Made by a program: the position numbers. This document shows positions 36,001 through 39,000 of a DNA stretch of 43,446 bases, in pieces. Source of the stretch: an uncultured Thermoplasmatales archaeon. Lineage in GTDB: Archaea > Thermoplasmatota > E2 > DHVEG-1. The stretch lies in contig CAZFAZ010000055.1 in NCBI GenBank assembly GCA_964517155.1, positions 1 to 43,446 on the forward strand, read 5' to 3'. Numbering within the stretch: position 1 is the first letter of the stretch; every line of letters starts with the position of its first letter.

Positions 36001-39000
36001 CTTAGGCACAGGTTGCCCAAAATGTAAGGCAACTGAAAAAATAGTCAGGCAGGTTGTTGACGAGCTTGGTAAAGATGTAGAAGTTGTAAAAATTGAGGAT
36101 TTGCAGGAGATTGTTAATCGCGGTGTTATAATGACACCCGCGGTTGTAGTTGACGGAGAAGTAAAAATCGTTGGTCATGTACCAAGTGCTGATGAAATTA
36201 AAAAATTGTTGAATTAAGGAGATGATGGATTTATGAGAATAATTGAGGAATGGTTCCCAGAGTTTTCAAAAGAATTTGATAAAATAGATGAAATGTATAA
36301 AGAAAAACGGACGATCGATGAAAAAACCTATCAGTTCATATGTTTTTCAATGGCTATAAAAGGACGCAGCGCTCCTTGTGTTCGTAAGCATTTCAAAGGT
36401 GCTCTTGAAGCAGGTGCAACACTAAAGGAACTTGCTTATATTATGGCACTTGTATTTCGTGAAAGTGCAGGTAACGATGACTGCTGGGTGCATGATGTTC
36501 TTTCTGATTATAAAGATTTGATGAAGAATAATATTCAATGCTGTCCTAAATAGTGATATAAATGAAGAAACTGTGTATTGAATGGAAGCATCTTGATACA
36601 AACAAGAGTACTTGTATTAGATGTTCAAAAACCGGTAAGACGCTAAAACAAGTGGTTGCAGATTTAAAGAAAGAGCTAAACTCAAAAGAAATCAAAATAA
36701 ACTTCACCGAAACTAAATTATCTAAAATACAAATCCAAATTGCAATCGTATTTTTTTCAACTGGTTTTTTATACAGAGTAGTTTACTAATGTAGCAACAA
36801 GGTATTAAAAATATTATCATACTCATTAATACGATTTTCCCAACGATGCACCATAAACTTCTGGCATAAAGCCTTTTGCGAAAATGGTTTTTTTTCAAGT
36901 ATGGCCGTCAAACGACTAAAAAGTTCATCATCAGTATTGTACAACATACTGGCATGATATTCTTTGGGAATAATTTCAGGATAAGAAAGACGGTTTGGAA
37001 GCAGTGGGAAACAACCGCACTGAACGGCCTCGACGATTGAAAGTCCAAAATTTTCCTGAATAGCTGTACTGACAACTATATCTCCTGAGGCAAGGAACGA
37101 AAAATAATCCTCTCGGGATTCAACATATCCGTAATGAAAAATGCGTTCAGAGAGTTGATTGATAAGAATTTTGTATTTCTTAGATAGGGTGGAAGGTGAT
37201 TGGCCTAACAGGATTACTTCAAAATCATATCCGGCATCCATGCATAGAGTAAGTGTCTTTAAAAAAAGGGTTGGCTGTTTATCGTATTCCCAGCGATGGT
37301 TCCAAATTATCCGTGGCACATTGTTTACCGAAGAGTGTTTAGAAAGGTTATCTGGAGTATCTGTTCCTGGGTAAATTGTTGCAGATCGTTCCTGTGCACG
37401 TTTTATCCAGTATTCAGATGACAGTGTTGTGCGGGGGATTTCTTTGATAAATGTCCTAAGTGCACTGTGATAGCTATTGCGATGGAAGTCAGAATTATAT
37501 ATCACAAGATCGGCTGTGACCGTATTCATGAAATCGATCCACTCGACCTGAAAATCCCTTTTCTGCTTAGTACTTCGGGGGTAAGTATGCTGATCTTCAT
37601 GAACATACAACATAATAGGTGGACAGGTTGGGCCTACAAGAGCCTTCAGCTCAGATACATTGCAGAGACTAGTCATAAAGATGAGGTCAAATTCTTTAAG
37701 ATTATCAGCATTCTGAATAATTTCTGCAGCACCCTTTTTCATCCGGCAGCGCCAGAATTTATCTGGCAGCGTAAAAAGCGTAATATTGTGACGAGAATGT
37801 TGTATCAAACCATCAATAAAAACTTGATGTGAACCACCATAAAATGTTTCAATAGCAGCAATTTTTAATATTTTATCCATGAAAATTCCTTCATATTTTA
37901 TCGATTTTTAAGAACGCACCCTTAAAAATAATTTTTCATGTTTCAAGATTTGTCTTCAGTATGCCATATATGCCCTTTAATGATTTTAATCTTTGTAATA
38001 TAAAGTGGTTCATAAGAGAAAATAAATGGCTTATGCCGAAGTTATAATGTGTGATTAAACCATACAAAATAGATTTTTATTGTTTGAGTAAAATTAAATA
38101 AGAAGTTAGCATTAAGTTTTTTTGTTAAGATTATGGGACAATTAATTTAACAATATCCATTTTTTTATTAGTATTAAAAAGCCTATGCATCTCTTTTATT
38201 CTATCGGCTTTGCCTTGTAAAACAAATATTTCAAGGCATTTTTCTTTTTCAAAATGGCTATGAATCTGTGTCTTTGTAATATCTTTAAAATCATGTTTAA
38301 TTTCTGAAACTGCATTTTCTGAATCATGATGATGTATAACAAGAAGTATGGAGTTTATTTCTCCAAATAGTTTTTTAGTATCTTTAGTTTCTGAGATTAG
38401 AAGTCTAACGCCTGCTCTTATAACTTCTGATCTACCTGAGTATCCATGTTCATTTTGTATTTTTTCAATGTCCTTTAGAATATGCTCATTTAATGATATG
38501 CTTATTATAGTCATAAAAACAAATAATTAATAATATATTTATATACTTGACCATAAAAGTTAATAATAAATTACATAAGTATTATTAACAATAACCGTGT
38601 GTGGGTAGAATTATATGATAAATAAAAAAATCTTATATTCAATTATGCTGTGCATTGCAATGATAACAGTTTCATTATCCGGCTGTATCGACAATCAAAC
38701 CTCAGATAGAGTCGGTGTTTTAGTAACCATTGTTCCACAAGCTGAAATGGTAGAATTTATCGGCGGAGAATACATTGATGTTACAATTATGGTTCCAGCA
38801 GGTCAAAGTCCTCATTCTTTTGAACCAACACCAGATCAGATGAAAAAAGTTGCCAAAGCAACAGCATATTTCACGGTTGGTTCTGATGTTGAGTTTGAAG
38901 TTGTTTACATGGATACAATTCTTGAGCAAAAATCAGATTTACAGGTTTTTGATTGCTCAGAAGACATCTCTGTTATTTCTTTTGATGAGCATTATGGAAA

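Follow-up and report, generated by a model that had tools for sequence, protein, structure and literature searches.

Glycosylated queuosines (manQ and galQ) are, to our knowledge, known only from animals, and the enzymes that make them were reportedly named only in 2023, when a paper in Cell is said to have given one of them the name QTMAN. The animal enzyme, also called GTDC1, belongs to the DUF3524 family, of which we know no prokaryotic member that has yet been assayed. Our literature search found no work on bacterial or archaeal QTMAN homologs, nor any that names DUF3524, and none on a 'bacterial-type TGT' in archaea under that name, TGT being tRNA-guanine transglycosylase.

Two described prokaryotic systems come closest in gene content to what is reported below. 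In Chlamydia trachomatis queuine is salvaged directly, by a bacterial-type TGT and the transporter QPTR, with no QueA, QueF, QueG or QueH. One report ties a five-residue pocket loop, GG[LS][AS]G, together with tgt-only gene content, to this direct salvage (PMC11570991). Eukaryotic queuine-type enzymes have Val in place of Cys158. In archaea, Castelle et al. 2021 (PMC8204110) list QueA, QueH-like and Tgt proteins in 34 genomes (DPANN and some Methanosarcinales), where the co-localised genes make up the de novo end of the pathway and, in the parts of the report concerned, are interpreted as a route of tRNA modification gained by lateral transfer; its passages on queuosine genes include no glycosyltransferase.

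Here we describe a QTMAN/GTDC1-family (DUF3524) glycosyltransferase gene in an uncultured member of a sediment Thermoplasmatota order (source genome G000). In the window, by which we mean the whole stretch of 43,446 nucleotides that was analysed, the gene occupies 36786..37880 on the minus strand, ATG start and stop codon included, and encodes 364 amino acids. An earlier note on this DNA had called it a full-length QTMAN homolog, and the domain limits agree: QTMAN_N (residues 6-172; 37365..37865, minus strand) matches positions 1-167 of the 168 in the Pfam model (E 2.1e-43; 148.5 bits against a cut-off of 25), and the C-terminal GT4 domain, the nucleotide-sugar half, follows at residues 181-332 (Glycos_transf_1, E 2e-14; 36885..37340, minus strand). 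Hydropathy gives no sign of a membrane segment (the highest Kyte-Doolittle mean over 19 residues is 1.25), and the strand-helix pattern of its AF2 model (pLDDT 88.1, pTM 0.88) can be read as two Rossmann-like halves, the N-terminal of which is, as a rule in GT-B enzymes, the one that binds the acceptor. The best Foldseek matches in the PDB are generic GT4 folds at 11-19% identity (BshA, MshA, PimA and GlgM, with E 1e-14 to 1e-11 and TM 0.65-0.72, and a pterin glucosyltransferase), while a sequence search of the PDB gave no match at E <= 0.001. On sequence grounds, the product is a retaining GT4 glycosyltransferase of the cytosol and belongs to the QTMAN/GTDC1 family. A role in a defence system was considered and set aside, the Pfam GT4-conflict match being weak (E 9e-4, below its cut-off) and PADLOC returning 0 families.

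The resemblance to the animal enzyme extends over both domains. Named animal GTDC1 or 'tRNA-queuosine alpha-mannosyltransferase' proteins were recovered by an exhaustive phmmer search at E 4e-57, 3e-53 and 8e-52, and the archaeal protein is 33-36% identical, over about 350 aligned columns, to QTMANs of a crinoid, a sea cucumber and two ray-finned fishes. Both share the QTMAN_N plus GT4 architecture, but the animal proteins carry a linker insertion of about 95 residues after residue 182 that the archaeal protein lacks, and whereas animal hosts have a TGT of the QTRT1/QTRT2 type, the archaeal host has a single bacterial-type enzyme. An alignment of 165 family members has 36 positions with conservation of 90% or more, every one of which is retained in the archaeal protein (P0001) and also in the four animal QTMANs, except for R46K in one of them. 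About 12 of these positions fall in the N-terminal, acceptor half, where S17-H18, W43, R46, Y92, H94-E95-x-Q97-x-x-Y100-P101 and N129-S130 are conserved at this level. In the C-terminal domain, the motif W-N-H-R-W-E-Y-D-K bears R196 and K201, both invariant in 165/165 sequences, as is G279, and E276-x7-E284 is also present, with E284 in 164/165 sequences and either E or D at position 276; we take these to be the Arg/Lys pair and E-x7-E motif of the GT4 C-terminal half. In the two fish QTMANs (460 aa) the residue opposite K201 is K298, in a column that presumably is also that of human K296, the catalytic lysine proposed in the relevant part of a recent preprint (bioRxiv 10.64898/2026.06.28.735034). 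BshA, MshA, PimA and GlgM, GT4 enzymes with soluble acceptors, have in common with the archaeal protein the GT-B fold, the Arg/Lys pair and the E-x7-E motif, but Pfam assigns their N-terminal halves to different families and none has the QTMAN_N signature residues. The sharing of these 36 conserved positions is an argument that animals, bacteria and archaea have kept a single acceptor site in common.

The gene is rare and patchily distributed. QTMAN_N was found in 7 of the 118 genomes of the order, the source genome included, and in 6 of 401 sampled genomes of the phylum, all within one family. Orthologs 76-85% identical to the gene occur in seven further archaeal assemblies of three genera, and two genomes of the same genus are without it. 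Its closest non-archaeal relatives (60-62% identity) lie in bacterial genomes. Cultured bacteria with the gene include Desulfatibacillum alkenivorans DSM 16219, Desulfobacter curvatus DSM 3379 and Desulfosarcina alkanivorans PL12, whereas E. coli, which has Q34, is without DUF3524 (0/14 control genomes). The placement of the archaeal protein within the bacterial DUF3524 proteins, together with a GC3 of 0.34 against about 0.20 for neighbouring genes, shows that one lineage of the order acquired the gene from bacteria. It is intact in seven genomes of three genera with all family-wide conserved residues, which suggests selection. Synteny with genomes of the same genus is confined to an ArsR-ArsP-thioredoxin block; the contigs break, and no insertion boundary could be set.

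The earlier note had paired this gene with the 3' part of a bacterial-type TGT gene cut by a contig end, and such a fragment is indeed present: about 128-129 codons at 11217-11603 of contig C83 (minus strand), cut short where the contig stops. It shares 75% identity with the matching stretch, residues 267-394, of the complete TGT in a genome of the same genus (G091) and 85-86% with the full-length TGTs of G024 and G026. No other piece of tgt was found in the source assembly. A bacterial-type TGT exceeds the TIGR00430 equivalog cut-off (306.75 bits) in 32 of the 118 order genomes, and fragments in the source genome and G013 are included in an overall count of 34/118. Full-length orthologs in 31 of the genomes score 451-481 bits against this model, the source fragment only 151 bits because no more than 128 codons are assembled. 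The orthologs carry TDSGGFQ, LDECT and FDCV (catalytic Asp102 and Asp280, and Asp156), and the fragment itself has FDCV and the zinc site CNCKVC...H (C-x-C-x2-C...H).

The substrate pocket of these enzymes has been remodelled. All ten order TGTs aligned read GG-SLGK in the pocket loop, and the preQ1-type GGL(A/S)(V/I)GE with its Val233 and Glu235 was seen in none of them; the loop is GGLxIGE or GGLSLGE in nine aligned TGTs that belong to other families of the phylum, and GGLAVGE, GGLSVGE or GGVSVGE in three bacterial ones. The order loop is five residues long like that of the queuine type, but reads GGSLG instead of GG[LS][AS]G; it is one residue shorter than the preQ1 type and the bulky residue at the Val233 position is gone. 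Cys158 is retained, and Glu235, kept by bacterial and human enzymes, is replaced by Lys. The exchange Glu235Gln is reported to shift the Zymomonas mobilis TGT towards preQ0. The passages of PMC3660597 that bear on the pocket describe the role of Glu235 and connect the absence of Val233 with space for the ring of queuine. The pocket in the order is an exact match to neither of the two types, preQ1 or published queuine; queuine is the putative substrate of the enzyme.

Gene content in the order matches a queuosine route that depends on salvage only, with tgt and QPTR but no QueA or QueF as a rule. TGT and a QPTR/YhhQ precursor transporter are divergent neighbours in 30 of the 31 full-length loci, QueA and QueF occur in 1/118 genomes each, and QueH in 0/5 examined. 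In the source assembly QPTR was not found, tgt being there only as the 128-codon stub at a contig end. The window itself encodes QueC (19752-20450, minus strand; Pfam QueC, E 1e-75) and QueD/PTPS (20466-20984, minus strand; Pfam PTPS, E 2e-23), which show that preQ0 is made in the cell, and since QueC is present in 117/118 order genomes, the transporter is not needed for preQ0 supply. In other families of the phylum tgt occurs together with queA (5/5 genomes examined, adjoining tgt in 4), and those organisms therefore probably make Q. A search for Qng1/DUF2419 (0/5 genomes) carries no information, the control genomes being silent as well. The TGT-QPTR pair, the near-absence of QueA and QueF and the remodelled pocket loop are the new element beyond the earlier observation; they supply a concrete candidate for the queuine route, which the note had listed as unknown. 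Its suggestion that a deazaguanine at position 34 would be new for archaea, on the other hand, was overstated, in view of the queuosine genes reported in 34 archaeal genomes in the pertinent passages of PMC8204110 and of the finding that other families of the phylum combine tgt and queA.

Set against the two described systems, the order shares with the DPANN and Methanosarcinales cases an archaeal Tgt of bacterial type, but there Tgt is co-localised with QueA and QueH-like proteins, according to the queuosine passages of PMC8204110, and here it stands beside a transporter, without QueA. Chlamydia trachomatis is the closer parallel: both have tgt and QPTR without QueA, QueF and QueH, and in both the TGT pocket loop deviates from GGLAVG, to judge from the TGT sections of PMC11570991. 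The archaeal order differs in that tgt and QPTR form a fixed divergent pair, in that the loop reads GGSLGK rather than GG[LS][AS]G with Glu235 lost, and in that the host makes preQ0 for archaeosine; its use of queuine is a prediction.

Every genome of the order that has the QTMAN homolog also has the bacterial-type TGT (7/7, against 27/111 of those that lack the homolog), which bears out the pairing of the earlier note and extends it to a further archaeal genome outside these seven (G119), making 8/8 archaeal genomes in all; of 50 bacterial genomes with the homolog, 48 have QueA, one of them an unpublished genome (G133). The co-occurrence in the order rests on three genera, not two as the note had it, and has a hypergeometric probability of 0.03 at genus level. 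Within those three genera the probability is 0.25, since TGT is present in 17 of the 20 genomes in any case. The co-occurrence is therefore confounded by kinship. In the 401-genome phylum sample, QTMAN_N occurs in none of the genomes outside the order that are positive for bacterial-type TGT (about 72, a figure obtained by subtraction).

We propose that imported queuine is inserted at G34 and that the resulting Q34 is then glycosylated by the QTMAN homolog, a reading whose chances we put at about even. A transporter of the QPTR/YhhQ type would import queuine released by bacteria, queuosine not being made by the cell; the bacterial-type TGT, with its pocket remodelled to GG-SLGK from GGLxIGE, would exchange G34 for queuine; and the QTMAN homolog would draw on a nucleotide sugar to attach a hexose to one hydroxyl of the cyclopentenediol ring of queuosine-34 in a tRNA with a GUN anticodon. 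By analogy with animals, the donor may be GDP-mannose, the sugar mannose and the acceptor tRNA-Asp. What the genomes show directly is the family to which the protein belongs, its conserved residues on the catalytic and the acceptor side, the bacterial origin of its gene and, for the order, the pairing of tgt with QPTR where QueA and QueF are lacking; acceptance of queuine by the TGT is predicted, and action of the glycosyltransferase on Q34-tRNA, and the identity of sugar and tRNA, are suggested by the animal parallel. The glycosylated wobble queuosine of the earlier note is partly supported: it has the pairing of the genes, the salvage kit and the acceptor-side residues in its favour, and is weakened by kinship and by the mismatch of the TGT pocket (Cys158 kept, Glu235 lost). 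A wider proposal, to which we give somewhat less than an even chance, is that the order depends, as animals do, on queuine as a micronutrient, taking it up from neighbouring bacteria that make it and inserting it at the wobble position with the re-tooled TGT, with a sugar added in some species; that bacterial DUF3524 proteins (in Desulfobacterales, Spirochaetes and others) are queuosine-34 glycosyltransferases, those of spirochaetes teamed with a dedicated RNA m5C methyltransferase; and that glycosyl-queuosine is a bacterial invention acquired separately by animals and by archaea.

Prokaryotic enzymes of the family might instead glycosylate something different, for example a protein, a short glycan or a small molecule in solution, in which case the animal tRNA role would be a later specialisation and the overlap with TGT would come from shared ancestry and sediment gene pools. 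The closest solved folds do act on small molecules (BshA, MshA, GlgM and the pterin glucosyltransferase), and the co-occurrence with TGT is no better than chance inside the three genera and does not extend to the TGT-positive genomes outside the order in the phylum sample, though QueA is present in the five examined there. The archaeal gene is unlinked to tgt, as the earlier note had conceded in calling the two genes non-adjacent, and the archaeal QTMAN loci have no neighbour gene in common. Among bacteria, a second GT4 gene follows in five Desulfobacterales loci (three Pfam-checked) and a class-I methyltransferase in four loci (two Pfam-checked), which might point to a small glycan being built on some different acceptor. 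Other surroundings speak for RNA. In six spirochaete loci an NSUN4-like RNA m5C methyltransferase lies directly downstream (gap -58 to +2 bp), and in one metagenomic ORF (P0362) such a methyltransferase is fused to the glycosyltransferase; we count these partners in favour of a link to RNA in bacteria. As weak evidence on longer fusions, no protein of 638-2000 aa scored. ORF clustering of 80 loci revealed no neighbour common to more than eight and no recurrent envelope or polysaccharide context, and no glycan or envelope gene cluster surrounds the gene in the window or at the other archaeal loci. The conserved residues of the N-domain, moreover, match those of proven animal tRNA enzymes (with R46K in one animal), and queuosine genes accompany the homolog in 8/8 archaeal and 48/50 bacterial genomes. 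On balance, we consider action on another acceptor unlikely, if well worth keeping in view.

A second alternative concerns the TGT, which could insert self-made preQ0 (from QueC, QueD and QueE) or imported preQ1 in place of queuine, leaving position 34 without a cyclopentenediol and the QTMAN homolog as a recent import with another role or none. With Glu235 changed to Lys and Cys158 kept, the pocket has neither the queuine-type nor the preQ1-type signature, preQ0 is at hand given QueC in 117/118 genomes, and in Bartonella a TGT accompanied by QPTR without QueA is still preQ1-specific, as stated in the relevant section of PMC11570991; the foreign composition of the QTMAN gene and its patchiness within genera would also suit a recent import. 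We nevertheless judge this improbable: the loop is shortened by one residue and lacks the bulky side chain at the Val233 position, an alteration that has been linked to making space for queuine; if preQ0 is self-made, the presence of a dedicated transporter next to tgt is difficult to account for; and retention of an intact gene at 76-85% identity in three genera suggests selection. Bacterial DNA misbinned or chimerically assembled into an archaeal genome, finally, would account for bacterial nearest relatives and for a GC3 above that of the neighbours, but has next to no chance of being the explanation: the gene lies in the middle of a 43-kb contig, flanked by low-GC genes, together with QueC, QueD and histidyl-tRNA synthetase, and its orthologs recur in seven further archaeal assemblies of three genera on contigs of up to 52 kb.

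Should glycosylation of salvaged queuosine prove correct, archaea and bacteria may also possess a tRNA base with an attached sugar that had seemed peculiar to animals, and sugar-bearing queuosine-34 would join the archaeal tRNA repertoire. If the prokaryotic homologs share the activity, a function would be at hand for a family whose members occur in a few percent of bacteria and, as seen here, in archaea too, and the origin of the animal enzyme could be traced to bacteria. Queuine would then be a micronutrient exchanged in sediments, beyond the exchange between gut bacteria and animals.

ARAGORN, run with and without intron search, did not find genes for tRNA-Asp or tRNA-Tyr in the 91%-complete source assembly, which says little because the assembly is incomplete; genes for tRNA-Asn and tRNA-His were found. 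On the 5' side of the glycosyltransferase gene, an AT-rich spacer of 250 bp (37881..38130), the presumed promoter region, separates it from a neighbouring NikR-like ORF at 38131-38514 on the same, minus strand.

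The minus-strand gene at 36786..37880 is an uninterrupted open reading frame of 364 codons with an ATG start, and its product is, as the earlier note had held, a full-length homolog of the animal tRNA-queuosine mannosyltransferase QTMAN (GTDC1). Pfam places QTMAN_N (DUF3524) on residues 6-172, covering model positions 1-167 of 168 (E 2.1e-43; 148.5 bits against a cut-off of 25), followed on the C-terminal side by Glycos_transf_1 (GT4) on residues 181-332. None of the NCBIfam models is specific to the protein, the GT4 matches there all being sub-threshold, and no hydrophobic segment was found in it. 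An exhaustive phmmer search against 1.84 billion representatives yielded 3410 matches at E <= 0.001, 780 of them at E <= 1e-30. Among the matches listed, four are named by their source as GTDC1 or 'tRNA-queuosine alpha-mannosyltransferase' (crinoid, sea cucumber, bichir and reedfish; E 4e-57 to 8e-52, 33-36% identity over ~350 columns). The main difference is a linker insertion of ~95 residues that the animal proteins carry after archaeal residue 182.

A family alignment of 165 sequences (7 archaeal, 8 near-bacterial, 4 animal, and representatives of at least 300 aa) contains 36 positions conserved in at least 90%. The archaeal protein keeps 36 of 36, and so do the animal enzymes, except for R46K and F278Y, each in a single animal sequence. 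GT-B enzymes hold the acceptor with their N-terminal half, where the conserved residues are S17-H18, W43, R46, Y92, H94-E95-x-Q97-x-x-Y100-P101 and N129-S130. The C-terminal half has R196 and K201 invariant (165/165) and E284 in 164/165. In the alignment, K201 shares a column with K298 of the fish QTMANs; this column would also be that of human K296, which a preprint proposes as the catalytic lysine (bioRxiv 10.64898/2026.06.28.735034). A sequence search for a solved structure of a relative returned none; AlphaFold2, run on an alignment of 20 sequences, gave a confident model (pLDDT 88.1, pTM 0.88), and its alternating strands and helices may be read as two Rossmann-like halves. The closest solved folds, at 11-19% identity, are the retaining GT4 enzymes GlgM, glycogen synthase, BshA, MshA, PimA and a pterin glucosyltransferase.

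The gene bears a composition mark of foreign origin: its GC3 is 0.34 against 0.19-0.20 in four neighbor genes, and its GC 0.385 against 0.306 for the window. Of the best 120 database relatives, those at 75-99% identity form a tight group drawn from metagenomes and archaeal bins; a few more reach 56-66%, and below them, at ~40%, stand bacterial entries named 'DUF3524' or 'glycosyltransferase'. In species genomes, the protein finds its top matches in two archaeal bins (84% and 82%) and two bacterial ones (62% and 60%), followed by Spirochaetes, Desulfobacterales and others at 35-43%. The bins at 60-62% are bacterial, since they have a single canonical tgt (the gene for tRNA-guanine transglycosylase, TGT) and lack an archaeosine-type TGT. 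In a FastTree phylogeny of 164 sequences, the seven archaeal proteins share one branch (support 73), lying inside a starred group with 2-3 of these bacterial proteins (support 98-99), while the animal proteins form a separate clade (support 99). These findings suggest to us a single transfer of the gene from bacteria to the order DHVEG-1, with later spread or loss. No neighbor gene is common to the archaeal loci. One genome, G044, has two copies on different contigs, C9:7615-8115 (L090) and C104:3070-3570 (L091).

The earlier note had also reported the 3' part of a bacterial-type TGT gene at a contig end, and this stands. The present genome, G000, has three TGT-family matches: a 649-aa archaeosine-type protein, a 576-aa protein matched in part, and, where contig C83 ends (11217-11603, minus strand), a fragment of 129 codons with FDCV and a CNCKVC...H zinc motif; no further piece of the bacterial-type gene was found in the assembly. 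Across the order, 32 of 118 genomes have a TGT above the TIGR00430 equivalog cut-off. The 31 full-length genes score 451-481 bits, and fragments occur in G000 and G013. For the 397-aa ortholog in the congener G091, the E-value is 2e-90 against solved bacterial TGTs, 7e-71 against human QTRT1 and 6e-23 against archaeosine TGT, and such proteins already bear the NCBI name 'tRNA guanosine(34) transglycosylase Tgt [Thermoplasmata archaeon]'. The order's TGT has an insertion of ~25 residues after TDSGGFQAFSLG. Over the 128 residues compared, the fragment is 86% and 85% identical to orthologs in other genera (G026, L105; G024, L106) and 75% to that of G091 (L113). The QTMAN homolog of G000 is likewise closest to that of G024 (84%). 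Both genes may have been exchanged within the order, the tgt part of this reading concerning only those 128 residues.

In 30 of 31 full-length tgt loci (L092-L123), the divergent neighbor ~230 bp away is QPTR/YhhQ (PF02592), a precursor transporter, as at G091:C78:3472-5345 (L113) and G024:C29:6045-7922 (L106); at the 31st locus, the contig stops within a QPTR gene. The search for pathway genes took in QueA, QueF, QueH and QueC. QueA was found in 1 of 118 order genomes, as a fragment at a contig end (G014:C192:2304-2897, L112) in a genome without the bacterial-type TGT, and QueF in 1 of 118 (G032:C497:1444-1975, L132), on a 2-kb contig that also carries a second QueC; each of the two looks like a bacterial contaminant of its bin. 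QueH was absent from the 5 order genomes tested. QueC is present in 117 of 118 genomes, and in G000 it stands side by side with QueD (PTPS family) at 19752-20984 on the minus strand, 16 kb from the QTMAN homolog; the two presumably make preQ0 for archaeosine. The cell thus makes its own preQ0, and the simplest explanation for having a transporter next to tgt is a base that the cell cannot make.

Across the phylum sample, 92 of the 401 genomes have a bacterial-type TGT above the equivalog cut-off, and all five tested genomes outside the order with tgt also have QueA, adjoining tgt in four, with canonical pocket loops (GGLxIGE). Examples among L147-L156 are G255:C129:1102-3127, G309:C1:1721922-1724395, G187:C33:11322-13488 and G170:C61:2817-4762. 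Modules of two kinds therefore exist in the phylum: one combines tgt with queA and has a canonical loop, while the other, in DHVEG-1, combines tgt with QPTR and has an odd loop; a queuosine end-pathway of de novo type seems widespread within the phylum.

That odd loop reads Y/F/L-A-I-G-G-S-L-G-K in 10 of 10 aligned order TGTs, against GGL(S/C/L)(I/L)GE in nine from other families of the phylum and GGLAVGE, GGLSVGE or GGVSVGE in three bacterial enzymes. It is one residue shorter, with no branched residue where Val233 stands and with Lys in place of Glu235; Asp102, Asp156, Cys158 and Asp280 are kept. Changing Glu235 to Gln shifts the Z. mobilis TGT towards preQ0. According to PMC11570991, bacteria with tgt only are expected to salvage queuine, and queuine-salvaging TGTs typically have GG[LS][AS]G in place of GGLAVG, with Bartonella as a counter-example that keeps GGLAVG and prefers preQ1. 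In PMC5699537 and PMC3660597, eukaryotic queuine specificity is put down to Val233Gly plus Cys158Val, and Glu235 is presented as partnering the Leu231/Ala232 peptide switch. The order's TGT thus resembles published queuine-type enzymes in loop length and the missing Val233, but differs in sequence (GGSLG), in keeping Cys158 and in losing Glu235. Since the pocket fits the queuine type only in part, we divide our expectation of the substrate, giving about one half to queuine, about one quarter to preQ0 and the rest to preQ1 or something else.

QTMAN_N occurs in 7 of 118 order genomes, namely G000, two of genus g9 (G022, G024) and four of genus g19 (G044, G046, G047, G048), and was not found in the two congeners of G000 (83% and 88% complete). 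An even sample of 401 phylum genomes has it in 6, all in the same family, and in none of the TGT-positive genomes of other orders (about 72, by subtraction). The association with TGT proposed earlier recurs in 7 of 7 QTMAN-positive order genomes, against 27 of 111 negative ones, and in a further archaeal bin, G119, whose homolog is 82% identical and whose TGT is split into 309 + 86 codons. It is confounded by kinship: the probability of 1e-4 counts genomes as independent, but the seven positives fall in three genera, and it becomes 0.03 at genus level (3/3 among 15 TGT-positive genera of 45) and 0.25 inside the three genera, where 17 of 20 genomes have TGT. For bacteria, 50 genomes carrying the homolog were picked from 78 bacterial loci, long contigs being favored, and 48 have QueA (the misses are G120 and G161; G133 is an unpublished genome). 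Because 9 of 10 bacterial control genomes have QueA as well, the count agrees with what the reading requires and says no more.

Whether the protein glycosylates queuosine-34 of tRNA in DHVEG-1 archaea, as the earlier note had proposed, we regard as evenly balanced, judging from sequence. The salvage module and the acceptor-side residues shared with the animal enzyme speak for it, and the unusual TGT pocket, the incomplete G000 locus and the kin-confounded co-occurrence against it. That the homolog serves another acceptor is the less likely of these two readings, though a serious one, and bacterial gene context points both ways. Among 148 flanking ORFs at bacterial loci, 41 lie on the same strand within 80 bp, and their families are heterogeneous. 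At five Desulfobacterales loci a second GT4 gene follows, and a class-I methyltransferase follows in four (partly Pfam-checked), a pattern that suits a non-tRNA glycan no less well. Six spirochaete loci instead have an RsmB/F-type RNA m5C methyltransferase of 253-274 aa directly downstream of the DUF3524 gene (L009:11085-11891, L010:11104-11889, L014:1254-2012, L020:11104-11880, L064:11058-11876 and L065:5526-6347). The best match of this methyltransferase to a solved structure is NSUN4 (E 6e-37), and it scores under every NCBIfam equivalog cut-off. The metagenomic ORF P0362 (517 aa, N-terminus truncated) is a glycosyltransferase-methyltransferase fusion. Partner and fusion give an independent hint that the family acts on RNA. 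It is improbable, given the salvage module and in spite of the unusual pocket, that TGT supplies no queuosine and the homolog has another role, or none, in DHVEG-1 archaea.

The novelty claimed for position-34 deazaguanine in archaea is overstated, as PMC8204110 has already reported queuosine genes of bacterial type from archaeal genomes. Literature searches found no prokaryotic QTMAN homolog in print (the paper naming QTMAN lay outside the search), no tgt-QPTR pair with the GG-SLGK loop (the supplementary tables of PMC8204110 likewise) and no glycosyltransferase-methyltransferase link.

Within the window, the QTMAN homolog has no PADLOC match and no envelope or polysaccharide gene nearby. It stands alone on the minus strand between a plus-strand block of two ArsR-type regulators, an ArsP-type permease, a thioredoxin-like protein and a 106-aa ORF without Pfam match (34283-36553) and, on the other flank, a NikR-like regulator with a ZnuA/ZnuC/ZnuB metal uptake system (38131-41274). 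A histidyl-tRNA synthetase gene lies at 17038-18300 on the plus strand. A 424-aa ORF on the minus strand (32084-33358), with a GC of 0.253 and no Pfam match at E <= 1e-6, is adjoined by a class-I methyltransferase gene at 33369-34094.
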